Of a stretch of DNA of 64,000 nt, positions 3,142 through 53,746 are shown one piece after another. The position numbers and the translations under genes were made by a program. Each line of letters begins with the position of its first letter. The first letter of the stretch is position 1. The notes under the pieces are model-generated. The model had not been told where the DNA came from. It saw only the letters and a program-made list of their open reading frames with translations, and did not search any database. The DNA is from Bryobacterales bacterium (GTDB lineage Bacteria; Acidobacteriota; Terriglobia; Bryobacterales; UBA6623), in assembly GCA_965218555.1 (NCBI GenBank), contig OZ244625.1, positions 4,412,968 to 4,476,967 of the forward strand, given 5' to 3'.

Positions 3142-4193
3142 GGAATCCTCCGGAACACGGTACTGCTCAGGATGATTTCGAAAACGAGAAACCCGAGTCC
3201 GGCCAGAAGGAACGGCGGGAAGAACTCGCGATAGTCGACGAAGCGCATGGATTCGATTTCGCTCTTCTCTAACTCATCGATCTCTTCGTAGACGGCCCTG
3301 AGCGTCTCGGCGTCGGCGGCGGCTCGATAGAGGCCGCCGGTGGTTTCGGCAAGTGTCTTGAGGGCTTCCTCGTCGACACCGCGGCCGAAGGGCACCGAGA
3401 AGTTTCCCAAGGGTGTTCGGATGGTCGATGAGCCGGAGCCGCCGACGCCGATGGCGTAGATTTTGATGTCCCACGCAGCGGCGATATCCGCTGCTTCCTG
3501 AACGGTCCTCTCACCCGCATTGTTCTCACCGTCAGTGAGCAGAATGATGACCTTGCTCTTGATCTCGTAGTCGTTCTGTTCGCCGATTTGACGCGCCAGC
3601 GTTTCCTCAGCGGTTTGCAGTCGGGCGGCGGCGAGTGCGACGGCATCGCCGATCGCCGTGCCGTCTTCGCTTTCCTGATCGACTAGCTTGACCGTTGGGA
3701 GGAAGGCGGAAAGTGCGCCGTGGGCCAGGGTGAGCGGGCAGATCGTGTCGGCGTAACGCGCGAAAGTGATCATCCCGATGAGGTCGGCCGGTCGGCCGGA
3801 AAGGTTGGCGCCGTCCCCCTTCACAAACTCTTCGAAGATCTGATTCGCGATGTCGAGACGGGTCTGTCTCCTGCCGCGAAAGCGCAGTTCGGCCGACATG
3901 CTGCTCGAACGGTCGATTACCATTTCTATGGCGATGCCCCGGCTGACATCGTGAACCTTCTCGGTGCCTATCTGAGGCCGCGCGAGCGCCAGGGCCAGCA
4001 GCAGCATTACCACGACGCGCAAGACGACCGGCAGCCCCATCAGTCTTTGTCGGAGGGATACTCCGGCCTCGCGGACAAGCAGTATCGAAGAAAAGCGCAG
4101 GGATGCTCGGGAACCCCGCCGGAACACAACGAAGAGCGCCAGGGCAGGGAGGATCAGAAGCAAGAGCATCCAGGGGGATTCAAAGTGCAGCAT
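3138..4193 (-). CDS. batA: VWA-domain membrane protein BatA
   Basis: 351-aa ORF. N-terminal FESPWMLLLLILPALAL, typical of BatA. VWA motifs DRSSSM and LLTDGENNAG. C-terminal TM helix. Confidence 0.8.
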   Translation of the reverse strand: MLHFESPWMLLLLILPALALFVVFRRGSRASLRFSSILLVREAGVSLRQRLMGLPVVLRVVVMLLLALALARPQIGTEKVHDVSRGIAIEMVIDRSSSMSAELRFRGRRQTRLDIANQIFEEFVKGDGANLSGRPADLIGMITFARYADTICPLTLAHGALSAFLPTVKLVDQESEDGTAIGDAVALAAARLQTAEETLARQIGEQNDYEIKSKVIILLTDGENNAGERTVQEAADIAAAWDIKIYAIGVGGSGSSTIRTPLGNFSVPFGRGVDEEALKTLAETTGGLYRAAADAETLRAVYEEIDELEKSEIESMRFVDYREFFPPFLLAGLGFLVFEIILSSTVFRRIP

Positions 4194-4499
4194 TTCGGTC
4201 CGACTGGAAGGCAGGTTACTGACCGGAGCTTTCTCTCATTTTAGCGATTGGGACGAAGCGGACGGAGTTGTCGACGTACGACGGGCCGTTACAGGGCGGG
4301 CCGGTCGATCCAGGCGGGGCGGTGGTTCGGTTGTCGCACGAAGCCAGGAAGTCGCTTTCCGGAGGGCCATCATCCGTCAAGCGCCGGCAAAGGGTTGTGT
4401 GACATCTGCCGCAGGGTGTGTCCCCCTCGCAAGAACCGGTGCTGTTTCGCTGATCAGTGCCCGTGGTCCGAGCAGATGGAGACTACGGGGTGGTCGCAC

Positions 4500-5540: not shown

Positions 5541-6412
5541 ATCCGTCTCTCGCGTACACGGAAGAATTTGACGAGATCGCGGACATAGTCTTCGCCTGTG
5601 ACGACGGGGATCTGATCGATGCTCATCGAGCGTAGCGACGCGGCGAGATTCTCCGAGCGCGCACGCGTGAGCGCCTCATAGCGCCGGCGTATGGCCGCGT
5701 TGCTGCTATCGATGACGACGCTCTCACCGGTCTCGGCGTCTTCGAGCTCAATCAAGCCGGCTGCTGGGAGCGCGGCTTCGCGCGGGTCCGTGAGAGAGAC
5801 GGCGATGAGGTCGTGGCGTCGGGCGGCGATGCGTAGCCGCTTCTCGTAGCCGGAGGCCTGAAAGTCTGAGACCAGAAAAACGACGGTGCGCCGGTGCGTG
5901 ACACGGCCAAGGAAGTCCAGCGCTTGCGTGATGTCGGTCCGGGAACGGCGCGGCTGGACGTTGAGCAGATCGCGAATCACGCGCAGCACGTGTGAGACAC
6001 CTTTCTTGGGCGGGATATACAGCTCGACTTGGTCGGTGAAAACGATCAGGCCGACCTTGTCGTTGTTCTTGATCGCCGAGAATGCGAGCAACGCGCACAA
6101 CTCGGCGGCCACTTCGTTCTTGAGCTTTTCCTTGGCGCCGAAACTGCCTGAAGCAGACAGATCGACTACGAACAACACCGTCAGCTCGCGCTCTTCGACA
6201 AAGCGTTTGACGTAGGGGTGACCCGTTCGCGCCGTGACGTTCCAGTCAATCGTGCGAATGTCGTCACCGGGAGCGTATTCGCGGATCTCGTCGAACTCCA
6301 TGCCGCGGCCTTTGAACACGCTGTGATACTCACCCGCGAGAACGTCGTTGACGGCCTTGCTGGTGTGGATCTGGATGAGCCGGATCTTCTTGGCGAGTTC
6401 CTTGGGAATCAT
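5537..6412 (-). CDS. DUF58-domain protein (MoxR-associated)
   Basis: The track ORF is 5537..6739, but its first 109 aa are Arg-rich junk overlapping the moxR coding region. I trimmed it to ATG 6412 (MIPKELAKKIRLIQIHTSKAV...). DUF58 hallmark GEYHSVFKGRGMEFDEIREYAPGDDIRTIDWNVTAR. Confidence 0.85.
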   Translation of the reverse strand: MIPKELAKKIRLIQIHTSKAVNDVLAGEYHSVFKGRGMEFDEIREYAPGDDIRTIDWNVTARTGHPYVKRFVEERELTVLFVVDLSASGSFGAKEKLKNEVAAELCALLAFSAIKNNDKVGLIVFTDQVELYIPPKKGVSHVLRVIRDLLNVQPRRSRTDITQALDFLGRVTHRRTVVFLVSDFQASGYEKRLRIAARRHDLIAVSLTDPREAALPAAGLIELEDAETGESVVIDSSNAAIRRRYEALTRARSENLAASLRSMSIDQIPVVTGEDYVRDLVKFFRVRERRI

Positions 6413-6471
6413 GGCGGCGGTGAAGAGCTTGGAACGGACGACCGCGCCGGCCGACACGGCGCGGCGAGTTG

Positions 6472-7461
6472 CTACGGGACTTCCACGCTGTCGAAGATCT
6501 GCTGCACCACGTCTTCCGAAGTCTTTTCTTCGGCTTCCGCTTCGTAGCTGACGATGACTCGATGTCGTAGAACGTCCATACCGACGGATTTCACGTCCTG
6601 CGGCGTGACATACCCACGGCCTTCGATCAACGCCTGGGTCTTGGCGGCCATAGCGAGGAAGATCGTTGCGCGAGGCGACCCGCCGTAGCGGATCAGATCG
6701 CTCATGTCGAGCCCGTACCGCTCCGGGTCGCGCGTGCACTCGACGACGTTGAGGATGTACTCCTCGATCTTCTCGTCCATGTAGATCTCGTCTGCCAATC
6801 CGCGCAACCGGATGACGTCAGCCGGTTCCAGGATCGGCTCGACATCGAGCCGCGGCGAGGATCGCGCCATCCGCTTGAGGATCTGGTGCTCTTCGGCTTT
6901 CGTGGGGTAAGAGACCCTGAGCTTCAGCATGAAGCGATCGACCTGCGCCTCGGGCAGAGGGTACGTGCCTTCCTGCTCGATGGGGTTCTGTGTGGCGAGC
7001 ACCATGAAGGGCTCTTCGAGTCGGTAGCTTTCGTCGCCGATGGTGACTTGCCGCTCTTGCATCGCTTCAAGCAGCGCACTTTGGACCTTGGCGGGTGCGC
7101 GGTTGATCTCGTCCGCCAGGATGATGTTCGCGAAGATCGGCCCTTTCTTCGTCGTGAAGCCGCCGGTCTTGGGGTTGTAGATGAGCGTCCCGATCAGGTC
7201 GGCGGGAAGCAAATCAGGTGTGAACTGGATGCGCTGAAAGGCCGCCCGCACAGACTTGGCGAGCGTCGTCACCGAGAGGGTCTTGGCGAGCCCGGGTACT
7301 CCTTCGATCAGGACGTGGTTGTTGGCCAGCAGTGCTAGCAACAGGCGGTCGACCAAATAGGATTGGCCGACAATGACACGCCCGATCTCTTCGCGAACCC
7401 GCGCCAGCAGCACGCCCTCGCGTTGTACCTTTCCGGCAATTTGTTTGACGTCTACTGCCAT
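6472..7461 (-). CDS. moxR: MoxR-family AAA+ ATPase
   Basis: 329-aa ORF. Walker A GVPGLAKT, Walker B ILADEINRAPAKVQSALLEAMQE, and a C-terminal YGGSPRA motif typical of MoxR. Confidence 0.9.
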   Translation of the reverse strand: MAVDVKQIAGKVQREGVLLARVREEIGRVIVGQSYLVDRLLLALLANNHVLIEGVPGLAKTLSVTTLAKSVRAAFQRIQFTPDLLPADLIGTLIYNPKTGGFTTKKGPIFANIILADEINRAPAKVQSALLEAMQERQVTIGDESYRLEEPFMVLATQNPIEQEGTYPLPEAQVDRFMLKLRVSYPTKAEEHQILKRMARSSPRLDVEPILEPADVIRLRGLADEIYMDEKIEEYILNVVECTRDPERYGLDMSDLIRYGGSPRATIFLAMAAKTQALIEGRGYVTPQDVKSVGMDVLRHRVIVSYEAEAEEKTSEDVVQQIFDSVEVP

Positions 7462-7861
7462 GCGGATTGCTGCTCCTTCGATGAATATTTAGTCTAATGT
7501 TTTGTGATTTCCGCGAGCGTATCATGCCGTTGCCTGTCGCTGGGCAATACCGCAGGATTGGCCGGCTTCATCGCTACGTACCCAAGCATGTCCCTTGGGC
7601 AGCAGGCAAGGCCGAAACCGGCGGCAAGGCAAATGATGACCAACGCCGCGGTCGCCCGGATCGCCGCGGAAAGCCTGATGCGCGCCCGGCTTTCAAGCGA
7701 CGAAGCCCGTCTGCAACAGATCGCGGTCTTGCCGGAGGTCGAATAGACAAGACCACGGGCTCTTGAGAATCAATGGACGCCCTCTTCCAACGATGCGTCG
7801 GGGTTCGTCCCGCACCGACCTTCCGGGAATTTTGGCTGTCCCTCGGCCGCATGCTCGGGGA

Positions 7862-17021: not shown

Positions 17022-17098
17022 CCCGCAGAAAATCACAGCTCCGCGATAGAATGAGAATCAGTTACCCTCCTGTCCGTCTCACCTTAGCCTCGCAAACC

Positions 17099-17800: not shown

Positions 17801-18919
17801 ATGAAACGAAACATATTGATCATTGCTGTTTGCAGTCTGGCGCTGAGCTTTCTCACAGGGTGTGGCCGCAAGGCCTACGAGAATCCGATTGCCACAAACT
17901 CACAGCAGCCGGACAAGATCCTTTTCGACAAAGCCATCAATGATCTCGAGAAGCGGCGTTATGAGTTGACGCGTCTGACACTCAATACGTTGATCAATAC
18001 CTATCCCGACAGTGAGTACATCGCCAAGGCCAAGCTGGCCATTGCCGACAGTTGGTATCGCGAGGGGACACGCCACGCCCTGGCCCAAGCGGAAGCGGAA
18101 TACAAAGATTTCATGACGTTCTTCCCGACGATGGAAGAGTCGGCGGAGTCGCAGATGAAGATCTGCAAGATCCACTACGACCAAATGCACAGCGCCGACC
18201 GTGACCAAACGCATGTAGCCAAAGCGGACCAGGAATGCCGGCAGATGCTGATGCAATACCCCAACAGCCGCCATGCCGATGGGGCGCGGCAGATGTTGCG
18301 TGAAGTCCAGGAAATATTGGCGGACGGCGAGTTTCGGGTCGGCGCGTTCTACTCGTTCAAGGGCAGCTACCGCGCCGGAGCGAATCGTCTGCAGGCTGTG
18401 ACGGACCACTATCCGCTGTTCAGCCGCAGCGACGAAGCGCTATGGACGCTCGCCGATACGTACCAGAAGTTGGGCGACGAGTACATGGAGCAAAGGGCTG
18501 ACGCTCTAGCCCGGCTGGTGCGGGACTATCCCCTGAGCGAGTACCTCGATCGCGCGAAACAGGAGTTGGTGGCGATGAATCGGCCGGTGCCTGAGGCGGA
18601 CCCGGCGCGCTTCGAGTTGATGAAGTACAACCTGGATCATCGTACGAAGAAAAGCATCTACGGCAAGATGTTTGGATTTTTCGGAACCGGCCCGAACCTC
18701 CGTAATGCCGCCAAGGCGGGCGACCCGGTGATGACGGCTCTGACGCCGACAACGCCGGTCGGAGTGGGGCAAACCCGCGTCGAAGCCGATGGAACCGCGG
18801 GCGTCACCGTCGAGACCATCTCGGGTGAAAGCAAGTTGGACACCGAGCCCGACGCTCGCCGGGGGGCGCAACAGAACGAGGCGGAAGACGAACAAGAGTC
18901 CGATCAGCAGGAACAATAA
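17801..18919 (+). CDS. bamD: Outer-membrane assembly lipoprotein BamD/YfiO-like (TPR) with long C-terminal extension
   Basis: 372-aa ORF. Lipobox LSFLTGC. TPR pattern with YPDSEYIAKAKLAIADSWY, YPNSRHADGARQ and YPLSEY. Confidence 0.75.
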   Translation: MKRNILIIAVCSLALSFLTGCGRKAYENPIATNSQQPDKILFDKAINDLEKRRYELTRLTLNTLINTYPDSEYIAKAKLAIADSWYREGTRHALAQAEAEYKDFMTFFPTMEESAESQMKICKIHYDQMHSADRDQTHVAKADQECRQMLMQYPNSRHADGARQMLREVQEILADGEFRVGAFYSFKGSYRAGANRLQAVTDHYPLFSRSDEALWTLADTYQKLGDEYMEQRADALARLVRDYPLSEYLDRAKQELVAMNRPVPEADPARFELMKYNLDHRTKKSIYGKMFGFFGTGPNLRNAAKAGDPVMTALTPTTPVGVGQTRVEADGTAGVTVETISGESKLDTEPDARRGAQQNEAEDEQESDQQEQ

Positions 18920-19032
18920 GCGTCCTCCGGGCCGCGCTACCCGGCGGTGCGGTCGATGGAGTGGGCTGAGTGCAAGGTTGCGGATCTCTATGCCGAAATC
19001 TTCGCTACGGGTTTAGAGTCCCATCTGCTAGC

Positions 19033-19206
19033 CTGCATATCTCACCAAGTGGCGATGCGAAGTGCGTGAGAGGGCCGTCAGGACGAGGCGCTAGCCGCTT
19101 GGCGCTCGCAGGTGTACTTGACCGTACATCGAGCACGGCAAGCCAGCGCAACGAAGTCATGGCGGTCGTATGGTGTGCTTCGGCCGTCAGGTGGTGAGAA
19201 ATGCAG
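19033..19206. repeat. Copy A of a ~175-nt intergenic element with complementary termini (MITE or structured RNA candidate)
   Basis: Aligns almost base-for-base with 22595..22769. The termini CTGCATATCTCACC / GGTGAGAAATGCAG are inverted complements. It lies between bamD and the receiver gene. Confidence 0.75.
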
Positions 19207-19220
19207 ACTAGTTGCAATGA

Positions 19221-19859
19221 GTGTGTTTCGTGAGCACGATCCTGTTGGCTGACGACAACCCCCATGCACGCCGTATGGGAAGTGAGATCTTGGGAGAAGA
19301 AGGTCACCAAGTCGTTACCGTCGAGAACGGCGACGAGGCGGTTGCCTATCTCAACTCTCATCGGCCGGACCTTGTTTTGGCGGACACGGAAATGCCCGGT
19401 GCGAGCGGCTACGAACTTTGTGGATTCGTTCGGTCGCAACCGGCGTTCGGGAACGTGAAAGTCGTGTTGCTGCATCCTCCGCTGGAACGATTCAACGAGC
19501 GTCTGGCAGCGAAAGTCGGCACGGATGGCATGTTGCAAAAGCCCCTGGACGCGGCGGCCCTTATCGACACCGTTTCGTCGTTGCTTGAGAACAACGGCGC
19601 TGCTGTGCCCTCAAAGGAGCAACCCGGATTGGAAAACTTGGCCACGGCCGGAATAAGCGAGCCTGCGGCAGGCGATTCGGAAGGCCGGACTGCCGATCCG
19701 TTTGCCGAGGCCGTCGAACAAGTGCTATCGGAGCCGAATTCTGAACGTGAGCTTCGTGACCGCGTTTATTCCGCTGTGGCGGAAGTGATGGAGGACGTCA
19801 TTCCGGCTTTGGTCGATCGGATCACCGAACGGATCCTCCAGACAATGCGCAAGGGATGA
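19221..19859 (+). CDS. Single-domain response regulator (CheY-like receiver) with acidic C-terminal tail
   Basis: 212-aa ORF starting at GTG 19221 or GTG 19230. ILLADDN, phospho-acceptor context LVLADTEMPG, and K in MLQKPLD. Confidence 0.8.
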   Translation: MCFVSTILLADDNPHARRMGSEILGEEGHQVVTVENGDEAVAYLNSHRPDLVLADTEMPGASGYELCGFVRSQPAFGNVKVVLLHPPLERFNERLAAKVGTDGMLQKPLDAAALIDTVSSLLENNGAAVPSKEQPGLENLATAGISEPAAGDSEGRTADPFAEAVEQVLSEPNSERELRDRVYSAVAEVMEDVIPALVDRITERILQTMRKG

Positions 19860-19878
19860 CAATCTCAGGGACGCAGCG

Positions 19879-21239: not shown

Positions 21240-22511
21240 CTAGCGTTTTCGTATGTCTTCTGGCTCGTCTTCCCAATCGCCTTCCGCTGCGGCGTGTGGT
21301 TGAACGCGGACATGGGTTGCACGGCCCGCTTGCACTTCGACGACTTCCGCATCGGCCCCCTCAAACTTGACGGCATCGCCGACCTTGAGTAGGCGGCCCA
21401 ATTTGCTGACGAGCAGCCCCGAGACCGTATCGGCCTTGGAGTCGTCAAAGTCGAGCTTGAGCTCGCGGTTGATGCGCTCGATGGGCAATTGACCCGCAAC
21501 GAGATAGCGCCCTTCGCCCTCCGGGACGATCTCGGGCATTTCAGTGTCGAACTCATCCTGCACGGCGCCGACGATCTGCTCCAGCACGTTTTCGAGTGTG
21601 ACGATTCCTACTGCGGTTCCGAACTCATCGATCACGGTGGCCATGTGCTGGTGAGTGCTCTGCATCTGCCGCAGCAGGCGGCTGATGGGCATGGTTTCCG
21701 GGACGGTTCGCAGTGGCCGCACGACGCTGTCAACTTGGAACGGTTGGTCCTGGGGAACGCCCAGTAGATCCTTGATGTGCACCAGGCCGAGAGAGTCATC
21801 GAGGTTGCCTTCGCACAACGGATAACGCGTGTGTTTCGTCCGCTGGGCTATTTCTATGCAACGAGATAGTTGCCATGTGCGGTCGAAGATGACGACCTCG
21901 CGGCGCGGCACCATGATTTGCCGCACGACGAGCTCGTCGAAATGGAACACGGCGCTCAGAAGTTGCAGTTCAGCAGGTGTGATCTCGCCGGACCTGCCGC
22001 CCACCTGGATCATGGCCTGGATTTCGTCCTCGGTCACGGAGGGGGTTGATGTCCTCGCGGTGAAGATTTTCGCGAAACCTTGCGTCACCTTGATGATGGG
22101 GTAAAGCCCCTGCTGCATCAGCGTCACCGGCCACACGATGAGGTGCCAAACGCCTTTCCAATGGACGGCGCCGTAGGTCTTGGGCAGGATCTCCCCGAGA
22201 AACAGGATCGCGACTGTCAGCAACGCCGAGAAGGCAGGCACCCATGCTGCCCCGAACACGGTGGTGGCATACATGCCCGCGATTGTGGCCCCCGCGGTGT
22301 TGGCGATCGTATTGAGGATGAGGATGGCGGAAGTCGGCCTCGCGATGTCCTTCTTCATGTCGATGAAGCGCGTCGCAAGCCGGCGGTGCTTCCCGACGGT
22401 TCGTGCCGACTCGAGCGCGGCCATGCGGGTCGAGTAGAGCGTCGACTCGAAGAGGGAACACATGCCCGAGATAATGACGGTCAGCGCCGCCACCAAGAGA
22501 AGGATGGTCAT
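21240..22511 (-). CDS. CNNM/TlyC/CorC-family transporter (DUF21-CBS pair-CorC_HlyC)
   Basis: 423-aa ORF. DUF21 membrane part (LFLGEILPKTYG), CBS region (MVPRREVV...) and a CorC_HlyC C-terminus. Confidence 0.85.
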   Translation of the reverse strand: MTILLLVAALTVIISGMCSLFESTLYSTRMAALESARTVGKHRRLATRFIDMKKDIARPTSAILILNTIANTAGATIAGMYATTVFGAAWVPAFSALLTVAILFLGEILPKTYGAVHWKGVWHLIVWPVTLMQQGLYPIIKVTQGFAKIFTARTSTPSVTEDEIQAMIQVGGRSGEITPAELQLLSAVFHFDELVVRQIMVPRREVVIFDRTWQLSRCIEIAQRTKHTRYPLCEGNLDDSLGLVHIKDLLGVPQDQPFQVDSVVRPLRTVPETMPISRLLRQMQSTHQHMATVIDEFGTAVGIVTLENVLEQIVGAVQDEFDTEMPEIVPEGEGRYLVAGQLPIERINRELKLDFDDSKADTVSGLLVSKLGRLLKVGDAVKFEGADAEVVEVQAGRATHVRVQPHAAAEGDWEDEPEDIRKR

Positions 22512-22594
22512 TCTAAGGTCTCCTTATGCGGAGTGCTGAAGGGTTGTGCACGCGCTTAAAGCCGCCCGCGTGACTTTCACCACGGGCTGCTGAC

Positions 22595-22769
22595 CTGCAT
22601 ATCTCCCCACGTGGGGAGGCGAAGTGCGTGAGAGGGCCGGCAGGGCGAGGCGCGAGCCGCTGGGCGCGCGCAGGTGTACTTGACCCTACATCGAGCACGG
22701 CAAGCAAGAGCAACGAAGTCATGGCGGTCTTATCGCCTGGTTTCGACCGTCAGGTGGTGGGATATGCAG
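22595..22769. repeat. Copy B of the ~175-nt element
   Basis: Same orientation as copy A. The extended inverted termini TGACCTGCATATC / GATATGCAGGTCA (22591..22773) include the TGA stop of the channel gene (22771-22773). Confidence 0.75.
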
Positions 22770-22770
22770 G

Positions 22771-23844
22771 TCAGGGTGTCTCGCCAAACCACTTTTCGTA
22801 GAGTCTGCGGTAGGTTCCATTCTCTTGCAGATCAAGGAGGGCACGGTTGACCTCCTCGCGTAGAGGGCTTCCGTTCGGGAACGCCATTCCGTACGACTCG
22901 GTATTGAGCAGCGGCCCGACCAAAGCAACCTGGCTTTCAGTGTTTTCTTTCACGTATTGAAAGAGCGGCGGTGCATCGAAGACGATGGCGGCCACTTCTC
23001 CCGCCTCGAGAAGGTCATAGGCATCCTCGATTTCTTGGACTTCGACGAGGTGGGCCCCGAAACCGCGAATCACATCCGTGCTGGTGGAACCGGCCACCGT
23101 CGCCACACGACACCGGCGCAGGTCTTCGGGCCCGCTGATGTCGGAACTGAGTTGCGCGAGCGTGAGGCCCGCTGACAGCTCTGCGATGATGATCCCGAAC
23201 AGCGCGATGCCGGTGACCATGACTAGGAGTGCGACGAATCGCCCGATCCAGCGCTGAGGCGTGATGTCGCCGTAGCCGACGGTCGTCACCGTAGCAAGGA
23301 TGCACCAAGCGGCCTCGAAGATGCCCGGGAAGTAACCTCGGCTGATCGATTTGCTGCCTCGCTCGGCAAAGAACAGAATGTGGGAACAGATGAGCATGAA
23401 GCCAAGCAGGTAGCCGAGGGGCTTCACGATGCCGGACTCGGTCACTCCCCGCAGCAGGCGGGAAAGGCTCGACTCTTCGTTATTGACGCCCGCCAGAATA
23501 CGCAAGCCCGAACGCATGTAGGGATGGCTGAAATCCATCTCGCGTTCTCGTTGCCCGTTGATGGTGATGCCTGCGATCGCAGCGTCCACTTCTCCTTCCT
23601 TCACGGCTTTCAGTAATTGCTCGAAGGGAAGCAGCTTGAAGTTGCTCTCGATTTCAGCGACGCGGCGAACTTCTTCCCAGAGTTCGATGTCGAAACCGGT
23701 GTAGGAATCCTGTCCGGCGCCACCCTCCATCACGTTGGGGGGGAACAGGGCTATTCCAACAGTTGTTTCGGAATCTGCGCCGGAGAGCGGTGTCGTGGAT
23801 ACAGCGAAAAGGAAGAGCCCAAGCAGCCACGGGGGCTGTCGCAT
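22771..23844 (-). CDS. GluR0-type ligand-gated K+ channel (periplasmic-binding-protein lobes split by a P-loop pore)
   Basis: The track ORF reaches 24309. I trimmed it to ATG 23844 (MRQPPWLLGLFLFAV, signal). S1 lobe (FDIELWEEV...DAAIAGITING), M1-P-M2 with selectivity filter TVGYGD, then the S2 lobe (YGMAFPNGSPLREEVNRALLDLQENG). Confidence 0.8.
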   Translation of the reverse strand: MRQPPWLLGLFLFAVSTTPLSGADSETTVGIALFPPNVMEGGAGQDSYTGFDIELWEEVRRVAEIESNFKLLPFEQLLKAVKEGEVDAAIAGITINGQREREMDFSHPYMRSGLRILAGVNNEESSLSRLLRGVTESGIVKPLGYLLGFMLICSHILFFAERGSKSISRGYFPGIFEAAWCILATVTTVGYGDITPQRWIGRFVALLVMVTGIALFGIIIAELSAGLTLAQLSSDISGPEDLRRCRVATVAGSTSTDVIRGFGAHLVEVQEIEDAYDLLEAGEVAAIVFDAPPLFQYVKENTESQVALVGPLLNTESYGMAFPNGSPLREEVNRALLDLQENGTYRRLYEKWFGETP

Positions 23845-24161
23845 GAAAGGGATTGTAGCAAGCCCATCGGCGACACCGGAATGAAGTCGCCCAGTGTCGA
23901 TGAGGAAGAGCTGAGGCTGAGCACGGTGCGAAATTCTTTCATGGGTGTGCATATGGTTCATACCGCCGTCACCTACTCTCATGCTGGCCGTTCGCCCGGA
24001 CGAAAGAGCTGAAAGTACTGAATTCCAAGGGGTTGCGGGTTCCTGTCCAGGACACGGGAAAGGTTTGGAACCCTTATTGCACTGGCTATGGAAAGGATGC
24101 GATTGAGCGTAGCCGCCATCAGCGCCAATCGAACCGACACCGTTACCCAAAGGAGAGCCTG

Positions 24162-25046
24162 ATGAGCATAACGACAACCCAACCTCAACCCGAGAAGAAA
24201 TCCACTTCCGGGCAGATGATCGCATTGGCGCTTGTAATCGTGTTCGCCGCAGCGACGAATGTCTATCTTTTTTCGCGTATGAAGAGCCTGGAAGTCGAAG
24301 CGCACACATTGCGGACGCAGATCGAGACGGAGATCACCAAGGTGCACGAGTCTTCCGCCTATCGCAACGTTCAGGCGCGGCGCGAGTTTGAAGACTTGCG
24401 CGAGGAGGTCAAGAAGACCCGATCGCAGATCACCAAGCAGACCGACGCGAACACACGGGCGCGCGCCCGGCGGCTTGCCGACAACGTTGCCAAGAAACAG
24501 CGCGAGCAACAGGAAATGTTGCTGGGCGAAATCCGAGTGGTCTCCGGCAAGGCTGGTGAGGTCCAACAGGGCGTCGACGAAGTGCGCACCGACGTCCAGG
24601 CGATGCAGTCCGACGCCGAAAAGACGCGCGTGCAACTCAATGAGACAGGGGCGATGCTCCGCTCCACGCACAATCATGTTATGGATCTCGATGGGCAGGT
24701 GAGCGGCAATGCCGCCGGCATCGAGAATCTCCGCAAACTGGGCGAGCGTGAGCGGATCGGCTTCGCCCTCAAGAAGACGGACCGCATGCAGCGGGTCGGC
24801 GGGATCTATCTGCGCCTGAAGAACACCAGCCCCAAAAACAATCGCTTCACGCTCGAAGTGATGGCCGACGACAAGAAGGTCGAGCAGAGGAAAAAGCATA
24901 TCCACGAGGCGATGCGCTTCTATCTGCCGGACTCGGCGCAGCCGTATGACATCGTGATCACAGCGGTCCGCAAGGACCAAGTGAATGGTTACGTGAGCAG
25001 GCCGAAACTGCACGCCAACCGCATTGCCGCGATGGCGTCACGCTAA
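24162..25046 (+). CDS. Membrane-anchored coiled-coil protein, unknown function
   Basis: Trimmed to ATG 24162, preceded by AAGGAGAG. One TM helix (MIALALVIVFAAATNVYLF), a ~170-aa heptad-like K/E/Q-rich region and a beta-rich C-terminal ~90 aa. The antisense 344-aa ORF looks like GC-rich antisense noise. Confidence 0.6.
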   Translation: MSITTTQPQPEKKSTSGQMIALALVIVFAAATNVYLFSRMKSLEVEAHTLRTQIETEITKVHESSAYRNVQARREFEDLREEVKKTRSQITKQTDANTRARARRLADNVAKKQREQQEMLLGEIRVVSGKAGEVQQGVDEVRTDVQAMQSDAEKTRVQLNETGAMLRSTHNHVMDLDGQVSGNAAGIENLRKLGERERIGFALKKTDRMQRVGGIYLRLKNTSPKNNRFTLEVMADDKKVEQRKKHIHEAMRFYLPDSAQPYDIVITAVRKDQVNGYVSRPKLHANRIAAMASR

Positions 25047-25094: not shown

Positions 25095-26970
25095 GTGTGC
25101 CGAGCATGGTCGACAGCTTGGAGGTGCAAGTCCTCTATCCAGCCCGATGGCGGCGAAGGATTAGCGAAGCGCAAGGGCGTCGTCGTGAGGCGGGGTCTGA
25201 AGGAAGCGTGGAGCAAAGCTGCGACCCGATGGACAAGAACCGGATAGGAGGCCTACCCGGCCGGACGAGCGAGCCAATGATCGCGAAGTCCATAGCCATC
25301 AAGGGCCGGGGTGGTAAATCCGGCGGGTGCGCGGTGAAGGCGGTCGGTCTTACCTCGGGAGGTCTGCGTCGTGTCCGGAACCCCCGGACTGAGCGGGACC
25401 GCAAGGCCCGTGATCGCGGCGCAGAAGTCAGCAGAGGGAATAGTAGTCGGTTCGCCGATGAAGGCCCGAACGATGGACAGGGTTAGAAGGACGGTACGCT
25501 CATGCGGGCCAAGCGGCGGAACATCCAGTTGGAACTGGTCTTGGAGCCGGAGGCGAAGGGTGAAGCCCGGAGCGCCGGAGCCCAAGGGACCGAAGCCCGC
25601 AGGGCGCGTGCCGGACCCGAACGCCCGGCGGCTGAGCAGGGACCGTCGATGGAGACGGTCGTCGAGCCCGGCAATCTGAAGAAGGCGCTGGCGCGTGTCC
25701 GGCGCAACAAGGGGGCGCCCGGCATCGACGGCATGAGCGTCGATGATTTGGGCGATCACCTGAAGGACCACTGGACCGAGATCAGGACCCGGCTTCTTGA
25801 CGGCAGCTACACACCGCAGCCGGTACGGCGCGTGGAGATACCGAAGGCGTCGGGCGGCGTTCGTCCGCTCGGCGTGCCCACGGTGCTCGACCGCTTCATC
25901 CAGCAAGCGGTGATGCAGGTGTTACAGGGGGACTGGGACCGCAGTTTCTCGGATGCGAGTTACGGGTTCCGGCCCGGACGCTCGGCCCATCAGGCGGTGG
26001 AGCGCGCACAGGACCACTCCGAGCGGGCTTCCCCATCGTGGTCGATCTCGATCTGGAGAAATTCTTCGACCGGGTCAATCACGACATCCTGATGGGTCTG
26101 GTGGTCAAGCGGGTGGCAGACAAACGCCTGCTCAGGCTGATCCGTGGCTTTCTGACCGCGGGCGTGCTGGAGGGTGGGCTGGTCGGCCCGACCACCAAGG
26201 GGACGCCGCAGGGTGGGCCGCTCTCGCCCTTGCTGTCGAATCTGATGCTGGATGTGCTGGACAAGGAACTGGAGAAGCGCTGCCATCGCTTTGTCCGCTA
26301 TGCCGACGACTGCAATATCTATGTGCGGTCGCGGCGGGCGGACGAGCGGGTCATGGCGAGCGTGACCCGCTTCCTCGTCCGGCGGCTGAAGCTGACGGTG
26401 AACGCAGACAAGAGCGCGGTGGACCGTCCGGCGGTGCGGGCCTTCCTGGGCTTCAGCTTCATAGCCGGACCGACAGCCAAGCGGCGCATTGCGCCGCAGG
26501 CGCTCGCCCGGCTCAAGGCTCGGGTCCGGGAACTGACGCGCTGCACGAAGAGCGTCAGCCTCACCCATCTCGTCACGGAACTGTCCCGTTACCTTGTCGG
26601 GTGGCGGGGATACTTTGGTTTCTGCGAGACCCCCTCGGTACTGCGCAGCATCGAGCAGTGGATCAGGCGGCGGCTCCGTGCCGTCGTCTGGCGGCAGTGG
26701 AAGCGTGGGCGTACCCGCTTTGCGGCATTGCGTCGCCTCGGCGTCGGCAAGGGCTTGGCGGCCCAAACCGCCGGGACCTCTTGCGGCCCGTGGCGGATCA
26801 GCAATAGTCCCGCGCTCGCCATCGCCCTATCCAACGCCTTCTTCGCGCGGCTCGGCCTCGTCTCTCTCGAAGCCCGTGCAGACGCTTAAATCCATCGAAC
26901 TGCCGTGTACGGACCCTTATGCACGGTGGTGTGGGAGGGGCGGAGCCGCGAGGCTCCCCCCTATCCCGAT
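25095..26970 (+). mobile_element. Group II intron, bacterial class C (IIC), full-length RNA
   Basis: The 5' end GTGTGCCGAGCATGG..., CTGAAGGAAGCG and GAAGTCAGCAGA closely parallel the Oceanobacillus iheyensis IIC intron as I remember it. Domain V is at about 26901-26928 and aligns position-for-position with that intron. Domain VI hairpin (26933-26967) has a GCGA loop and a bulged A at 26963, 7 nt before a terminal AT at 26969-26970. The RT/maturase ORF lies in domain IV. Confidence 0.85.
25502..26889 (+). pseudogene. Group II intron reverse transcriptase/maturase, interrupted by a frameshift near 26011-26030
   Basis: Two track ORFs (25502..26092 and 26038..26889) together give RT domains 0-7 (GAPGIDGMS, RRVEIPKASGGVRPLGVPTVLDRFIQQA, TPQGGPLSPLLSN, RYADDCNIY) plus the X/maturase region (YLVGWRGYFGF). 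The reading frame switches within ...AVERAQDH / LRAGFPIVVDLDLEKFFD. No endonuclease domain. Confidence 0.85.
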
Positions 26971-52971: not shown

Positions 52972-53230
52972 AACCGTGGTTGGCGGCCGACACTTCCAAG
53001 GATGATTGCTGCACCCAAGAAACGCAAGCGGCCTGTCAACGCAGTATAGAAAGTATCCCTGTTTGTGCAATCTAGAACGTTCCCCATTCTCAGCATGGGT
53101 TCATGTTGCGTTCGCCGCAGCGGAACGAGCCCGGAGGGCGACGGGAGCCGCGGCGAACGGCGCTCGTCGTGAGGCCGACCGAGAACGGCGGACGGTGCGC
53201 GAACACTGGCTCAGGGGCAATATGTTTGCC

Positions 53231-53277
53231 GAGCAATTCCGGGCAATTCCGGGCAATTCCGGGCAATTCTGGGCAGG
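53231..53277. repeat. 10-bp tandem repeat, about 4.6 copies (GGGCAATTCC)
   Basis: gagcaattcc gggcaattcc gggcaattcc gggcaattct gggcagg, read directly from the sequence. Confidence 0.9.
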
Positions 53278-53746
53278 CAAGTAGTGACTGGGCGGCAAGA
53301 AAGCCGCGCAATGCCGCGCGAACGTGCGCCGGGAAGCCGTGACTGGGCGGCGGGAGCGGCGGTCCGGGCTGGCCGGCGCTACAAAGAACAAACTTCGTCG
53401 CAGACGCATGGGTGTGATCTCACCTCCTCGATTTTTTCTCCGCTTTTTTCTTCGCGAGAGCCAGGATGCCCGCCTCGCTGTCCTCATGCTATGCAAGCCG
53501 GGGCGGCTAAACAAGACTGAAGGGCTTCAGTACCTCGAGCCGAAGGGGAACGTTCTGCTTGGCTCACCAGGGGAATGTCTCCCATTGCGCCGACAAAAAC
53601 GCAAGCGGCTCTGGCGGTTCCGTTCGAGCACTACGGACGCGAAGTTACCAACGCTAACGCACGGCCCATGCCAGATAAGGTGAGCCTATCGCGATCCCGC
53701 CGGGGTAGGGGTTGTTGTTGTCTTGGTTTGTGGGGAACGTAAGCGG

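Follow-up and report, generated by a model that had tools for sequence, protein, structure and literature searches.

The window, a 64-kb stretch of Bryobacterales DNA, contains two look-alike segments of about 175 nt whose ends are complementary to each other. This leads to the question whether the pair is a mobile repeat or a structured RNA. The original prediction favoured a MITE-like repeat and offered a stand-alone, novel structured RNA as the other option. MITEs are non-coding, non-autonomous DNA transposons. According to the analysis described here, the two segments, designated copies A and B, are very probably old copies of a MITE family in sponge-associated Acidobacteria.

Copies A and B and their surroundings

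Alignment of positions 19025-19206 with 22587-22769 by blastn gave 87.4% identity across 183 nt, confirming that the predicted resemblance is real, and a blastn search yielded no third copy of the element within the 64-kb window. The two copies differ at 23 positions in total, and the predicted count of eight differences inside the central core of ~110 nt is correct (19078, 19083, 19092, 19100, 19106, 19124, 19144, and 19147). Applying nhmmer and blastn, with limits taken from the 164-copy consensus, copy A was assigned to 19032-19207 (176 nt) and copy B to 22594-22770 (177 nt), both on the plus strand, which is the family consensus orientation. The limits given earlier, 19033-19206 and 22595-22769, had the location right but were one base too narrow at each end when judged by consensuses of 116-164 copies.

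The complementary ends and the internal hairpin that had been described for each copy are both present. In copy A, the left terminal inverted repeat CCTGCATATCTCACCAA (19032-19048, plus strand) matches the reverse complement of 19191-19207 at 14 of 17 positions, the right repeat reading TCTGCATTTCTCACCAC as its reverse complement on the minus strand. In copy B the corresponding match is 15 of 17, between CCTGCATATCTCCCCAC (22594-22610, plus strand) and the reverse complement CCTGCATATCCCACCAC of the right repeat (22754-22770, minus strand). The apex hairpin GTGTAC-TTGACC-GTACAT occupies 19112-19129 (plus strand) in A and recurs with one mismatch at 22674-22691 in B. Copy A is bordered by the target-site duplication CTAG, at 19028-19031 and with the same letters at 19208-19211, whereas copy B lies between CTGA (22590-22593) and TCAG (22771-22774), the latter overlapping the TGA stop of a minus-strand channel gene. 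Because these flanks are not a direct repeat, the duplication of B is either decayed or atypical; the same CTGA/TCAG pair was found twice among metagenome copies. The terminal helix, which had been regarded as kept although its sequence differs, proved to consist of the inverted repeat plus a palindromic target sequence (CTAG/CTAG in A, CTGA/TCAG in B). The outermost "compensatory" pairs are thus flanking target sequence, and the apparent covariation of the terminal helix is not RNA covariation.

Both copies are intergenic and lie beside genes on opposite strands, in agreement with the prediction. Upstream of A, the plus-strand genes encode RsmB, Rpe, and BamD/YfiO (17801-18919), and downstream, on the same strand, a response regulator (19221-19859), DUF520, and a hydrolase. 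Copy B sits among minus-strand genes, with a CNNM/CorC gene (21240-22511) on one side and a GluR0-like channel gene (22771-24309) on the other, whose stop codon (22771-22773) it abuts. The start of the response regulator lies 10-19 nt downstream of A, and B directly follows a stop codon. These neighbours are housekeeping genes, and the two copies have opposite orientations relative to their own operons. Their shared absolute orientation, which had been used as an argument, carries no information with two copies alone. In read-through transcripts across A or B a long hairpin could form, and any effect on the neighbours would be a by-product.

Other repeats were noticed in the window. A REP-like hairpin repeat of ~38 nt, GCGCGTAACGCCGCCCGCGTGACTTTTGCCACCGGCTG, lies directly upstream of B (22552-22589, plus strand). 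It also precedes two MITE copies in another MAG (L008 ~4207-4244 and L019 ~7616-7653) and occurs alone, apart from any MITE, in chunks L090, L004, L110, L076, and L029; its position beside MITEs suggests that such sites are favoured for insertion or that repeat and MITE form a composite unit. Other dispersed repeats were seen at 53034-53296 and 53461-53596, common to the Bryobacterales chunks L088, L072, L028, L073, L057, and L003, with a tandem of four GGGCAATTCC units at about 53230-53275. Group II intron RNA domains were located on the plus strand at 25179-25466, with matches to RF02001 D1-D4-3 (25179-25348, 138 bits) and RF01998 D1-D4-1 (25391-25466, 42.5 bits), and the ORFs downstream may encode the intron protein.

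A dispersed family with a 4-bp target-site duplication

The original prediction called for a count of further copies. A search of GTDB genomes, one for each species, with the core 21-mer GCGAAGTGCGTGAGAGGGCCG, which A and B have in common, matched at least 112 8-kb chunks; among the matches listed, almost all came from four Bryobacterales MAGs, namely OZ241991.1 and OZ242366.1 (complete chromosomes of ~6 Mb), APA_bin_29, and RHO3_bin_12. An nhmmer profile of A and B gave 448 hits in the 879 kb of matching chunks, of which 367 were non-redundant after reverse-strand echoes of the palindrome had been dropped and 164 were full length. In OZ242366.1 there were at least 166 hits in 360 kb, i.e. in 6% of its chromosome. 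The hit rate was roughly one per 2-4 kb in the sampled chunks, a density that is biased upward and overstates the genome-wide rate, because only chunks with a copy entered the sample. When the left-end 21-mer CCTGCATTTCTCACCACGYGG was searched in metagenome contigs from JGI and other sources, it matched at least 120 stretches, which hold 112 full-length copies. Stretches of MKWU01, the metagenome that Slaby et al. (PMC5649159) described from the sponge Aplysina aerophoba, are among them; none of the metagenome contigs listed was syntenic with the window. Thus, hundreds of copies are dispersed in unrelated contexts in relatives and metagenomes, and the family is very abundant in uncultured sponge-associated Bryobacterales.

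The sole listed match outside Bryobacterales was L043 (JAAXGO010000265.1, 1232 nt), a contig assigned to Rhodothermales as part of a "Plut" MAG. The ORF that flanks the element there has a homologue in APA_bin_29 of the Bryobacterales (L003 3434-4117), so the binning is probably an error and not a sign of horizontal spread. Four scans of viral contigs, with three core blocks and the inverted repeat, returned a single match, which lies in coding sequence and is due to chance (L001). The family seems not to have been reported before, and the inverted-repeat sequence CCTGCATTTCTCACCAC was in no paper of the literature searched.

A consensus was built from the full-length copies with 50-nt flanks. 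It has perfect 17-bp terminal inverted repeats, CCTGCATTTCTCACCAC at the left end and GTGGTGAGAAATGCAGG at the right, enclosing ~140 nt that are themselves an imperfect palindrome, so that the whole element can fold as one hairpin of ~85 bp with an energy of -116.8 kcal/mol. Information content is high in CCTGCAT...ATGCAGG, intermediate in the flanking YTAR on each side, and zero beyond. The flanking tetranucleotides are a 4-bp direct target-site duplication at YTAR and do not belong to the inverted repeat. In a set of 108 clean copies, identical flanking 4-mers other than CTAG were found 25 times against 6.9 expected (permutation P<1e-4), whereas inverted-only flank pairs numbered 5 against 3.6 expected (P=0.29). 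Position by position, L-4 agrees directly with R+1 and L-1 with R+4 (P<1e-4), a correlation that also removes from consideration an IS630-type model with a TA duplication inside a CTAG target. The metagenome copies replicate the duplication: 20 of 57 have identical flanks, where 12.6 would be expected (P=0.0012). In roughly half of the copies overall the two flanking 4-mers differ, putatively through decay, and B and a few others carry inverted (CTGA/TCAG) instead of direct flanks.

Several size classes have these inverted repeats in common: palindromes of ~40 nt that consist of two joined repeats, the main class of 176-177 nt, and forms of ~200 and ~265-300 nt. The ~40-nt variants, although reduced to the two inverted repeats, still carry flanking YTAR. 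A chimeric subfamily was also observed in which the right-centre is replaced by a TTTTCACGAATCACGAGACACGAAACACGAATCACGG module (L111 2257-2439, L106 1340-1523, L022, L086, L030, L043, and L098), and the same module occurs in arrays elsewhere (L011, L017, and L025).

The prediction had further proposed a search for empty sites and target-site duplications. Collinearity with the window, at ~90% identity, was found for the comparison chunk L071 (OZ241991.1:6224001-6232000). At 4088-4271 this chunk contains a MITE flanked by TTGG...CTAG; the corresponding point of the window, between rsmB and rpe, is unoccupied and shows TTAG just once (17084-17087). The two loci compare as an empty and a filled site with a 4-bp duplication. 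An ortholog of A occupies the same site in L071 (6214-6399 in the alignment, with the element placed at 6218-6395) and is identical to it at 161 of 186 positions (87%). This is no better than the ~90% of the flanking genes, which argues for an old insertion evolving about neutrally. Hairpin energies were -116.8 kcal/mol for the consensus, -88.1 for A, -82.1 for B, -80.8 for the ortholog of A, and -75.5 for the copy L071_4092; relative to the consensus, the hairpins of the old copies are less stable by 29-41 kcal/mol. We infer that A and B are inert relics, that A predates the split from the ~90%-identical genome, and that B has lost its direct repeat.

Beside the ortholog of A the two genomes diverge. 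A TTTTCACGAATCACGAGACACGAAACACGAATCACGG module directly follows the ortholog in L071 (~6400-6700) and is absent there in the window. The response-regulator region of the window (19212-19876) gave no alignment at E<=1e-20 with L071 6400-7361, a segment ~300 nt longer, and the locus is thus locally divergent or rearranged next to the MITE.

Structured RNA, interrupting elements, and rival readings

The proposal of a novel structured RNA reads the rod-like fold as functional and the copies as gene duplicates or retro-copies of an sRNA or cis-acting hairpin. Folding is indeed far better than in dinucleotide shuffles for A and B on both strands (z -3.7 to -5.6), and the consensus reaches z -11.5 on its own strand (-116.8 kcal/mol) and z -8.1 on the reverse strand (-89.8 kcal/mol). 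Searches for a known family agreed with the earlier statement that the element is not a recognised RNA: Rfam gave no hit on it at the gathering score, and at E<=10 the only overlap was a chance match to whalefall-1 (20.6 bits against a gathering score of 37). For 116 copies, RNAalifold retained, besides the terminal helix, just a few short hairpins, and its covariation term was -1.1 kcal/mol; the statistical power of this test is limited because the copies are very similar. Within the terminal helix, more than two sequences were changed on both sides only at columns 3/207 and 4/206, which belong to the target duplication. Two internal pairs of a short hairpin, 121/133 and 122/132, were changed on both sides in seven and nine sequences, and these changes are due to rows of the chimeric subfamily with its replaced right-centre module. 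Three other pairs showed isolated double changes in one or two sequences.

No coding function was indicated either. Each of the eight core positions at which A and B differ changes an amino acid of the minus-strand ORF, and a 1-nt indel at the apex, inside the same open frame, is polymorphic (33 versus 82 copies). The ORF is therefore not a gene, in line with the prediction that it encodes no conserved peptide. Scans for sigma-70 promoters and intrinsic terminators around A and B detected none, and orientation relative to co-directional flanking genes was 23 same to 31 opposite (P=0.34, with crude GC3-based gene calls).

One property of the hairpin is not predicted by a pure DNA-level model. 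The fold is stronger on the consensus strand in 116 of 116 copies, and the consensus has nine G.U pairs on that strand against one C.A mismatch. About 12 of the 27 kcal/mol of strand difference are compositional, as judged from shuffle means, and richness in G+U explains a part only. Since all copies derive from few masters, the asymmetry is essentially a single observation with a binomial p of about 0.02. It is conceivable, though improbable, that master copies are selected as transcribed RNA hairpins, e.g. as RNase III substrates or mRNA-stability modulators, and that the expanded MITE population further serves as the natural, genome-wide landing pad to which a bridge-RNA-guided IS1111 element has adapted its recognition. 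If the landing-pad reading were true, bursts of MITEs would set where RNA-guided recombinases go in symbiont genomes.

In six copies, the MITE halves (model positions 1-95 and 91-189) are split by 1,437-1,439 bp at an identical point each time. The insert is an IS1111-group element of 1.44 kb at the MITE apex (L069 4935-6371, L069 2599-4035, L054, L059, L016, and L080), which encodes a 357-aa protein with DEDD_Tnp_IS110 and Transposase_20 domains. It starts with ATGGGATGGTTCGCTCCC and ends with GGGAGCGAACCATATATT. Subterminal inverted repeats of 13 bp, a left end of only ~100 nt, and a right end as long as ~260 nt are features that it shares with the IS1111 group (PMC11208160). Removal of the insert restores the uninterrupted apex, GGCGTACTT joined to GAACAGTACG, with the TT core duplicated by the insertion. 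Two stretches in the right end of the IS match the target: GGCGTACTT repeats the left flank and core in the same sense, and TACTGTTCA is the reverse complement of core and right flank, as would be predicted if they were the left and right target guides of a bridge RNA. The minimum free energy fold of this right end was no better than that of shuffles (z 0.3), so the guide assignment is drawn from sequence matches only. Copy A, whose apex hairpin (19112-19129) corresponds to this site, differs from the joined target by one mismatch and one indel; both window copies deviate in this way and carry no IS.

Two further insertion sequences lie within MITE copies (L040 6554-7978 and L092 4801-6748). 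One belongs, as a second such element, to the IS110 family and has a transposase of 318 aa, and the other, inserted at MITE position ~62, encodes a 487-aa DDE transposase. MITEs seem to serve as sinks for insertions.

These observations bear on the choice between the readings. Stable and strand-biased folds, together with the retention of A at one site in two ~90%-identical genomes, are what a structured RNA would lead one to expect. Against it stand the missing Rfam family even at E<=10, double changes in more than two sequences that, within the terminal helix, are confined to the target duplication, no orientation bias, with A and B opposed relative to their operons, and no promoter- or terminator-like sites. 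Old copies moreover lose their stability uncompensated, variants with nothing but the inverted repeats retain flanking YTAR, the 4-bp duplications and the empty site point to DNA transposition, and part of the strand asymmetry is compositional. This reading was accordingly judged very unlikely. That the element is instead an internally deleted IS110/IS1111 element, whose halves are IS ends moved by a bridge-RNA-guided recombinase, was prompted by the split hits flanking the DEDD_Tnp_IS110 and Transposase_20 segment in relatives. The junction sequences contradict it and leave it hardly any probability: the IS has ends, subterminal repeats, and a duplicated core of its own, its excision restores the MITE consensus, and all six insertions share one point. 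Its own ends, the restored apex, and the guide-like matches make the MITE a target of the IS and not a derivative. The MITE flanks, moreover, have no conserved target of ~14 nt, only YTAR and a 4-bp duplication, which is not expected of IS110 elements (PMC11208160).

A purely local segmental duplication with no wider family would account for two copies 3.4 kb apart in the same orientation and for their being the only two in the window. With hundreds of copies elsewhere, unrelated flanks of A and B, and an orthologous A in another genome, it can be dismissed. REP sequences are about 20-40 nt long, lack duplications, and have a conserved GTAG-type head. A REP/BIME palindrome, spread on single-stranded hairpins by a RAYT transposase (Y1, IS200/IS605-like), would likewise be palindromic, intergenic, high-copy, and strand-biased in its hairpin, and REPs too are targeted by IS110-family elements (PMC11208160, PMC12288879). 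The size of 176 nt, with 17-bp terminal inverted repeats, and the 4-bp direct duplication are incompatible with such an origin, which is extremely unlikely, and no RAYT gene was noticed in the loci examined. The MITE reading, by comparison, is backed by the following features: the elements are short (main class 176-177 nt) and have no coding capacity, and they combine terminal inverted repeats and a direct duplication with size variants and dispersed copies that are polymorphic for presence and absence. The repeat option favoured originally is thus upheld. The family is ordinary selfish DNA, a new MITE family of a well-known kind.

Proposed mobilisation and known systems

The combination of perfect inverted repeats and a YTAR duplication of 4 bp is the hallmark of DDE transposition in which the target is cut with a 4-bp stagger. 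In the proposed mechanism, a DDE transposase supplied in trans would bind the two inverted repeats, excise or copy the element, and integrate it at YTAR by a 4-bp staggered cut, the repair of which would duplicate the tetranucleotide. An autonomous partner was sought through inverted-repeat pairs 0.3-10 kb apart, solitary repeats, and clustering of multi-copy ORFs; the 1.66 Mb of DNA examined yielded no element that combines these inverted repeats with a DDE transposase. Each long inverted-repeat pair resolved into one of three arrangements: ordinary genes between two separate MITEs, a MITE split by an inserted IS110-family or different DDE element, or other repeats in an array. A known partner is lacking in many accepted MITE families too.

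For the window, A and B are relics to be masked as repeats and not to be pursued as a new RNA. MAG annotation would gain from a model of the family, since spurious ORFs of ~60 aa across the copies are to be expected from gene callers; such a model would also help to explain assembly fragmentation. MITE presence or absence at given sites would provide markers for strain tracking.

Classic bacterial MITE-like repeats are Correia in Neisseria and ERIC/IRU in enterobacteria, for which the autonomous partner is unknown or absent. The family resembles them in being non-coding, in its terminal inverted repeats, in tens to hundreds of intergenic copies with sizes in the range of 100-200 nt, and in forming long hairpins if transcribed. 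It is unrelated to them in sequence and host and duplicates the four bases of YTAR, where Correia duplicates TA, and promoter, IHF-site, or RNase III functions are not in evidence here. The IS5 group, with IS5 of E. coli, and its MITE derivatives share the 4-bp duplication with the motif 5'-YTAR-3' (PMC5009759), inverted repeats of ~16-20 bp, and the logic of DDE cut-and-paste, whereas no transposase gene with the present inverted repeats was found and the host is an uncultured Bryobacterales lineage. Elements of the IS701 family have highly conserved duplications of exactly 4 bp, as here (PMC2266710), while the MITE ends do not evidently follow the published end consensus ---YACT-Y--YR and no such transposase was found. 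With both groups documented to make 4-bp duplications, the mobilising transposase is probably of the IS5-group or IS701-like DDE type, an assignment that follows from the duplication.

IS621 of E. coli and ISPpu9 of P. putida are IS110-family elements that use an RNA guide and insert in REP elements (PMC11208160, PMC12288879). The target here is a transposon-derived MITE, unlike a REP, and the pairing of the guides is deduced from matching letters. In both situations, a high-copy palindromic repeat is the specific target, here of an IS1111-type element at the MITE apex, and the family thus offers a clean natural example of IS1111-type, guide-like RNA segments that match a defined multi-copy target.
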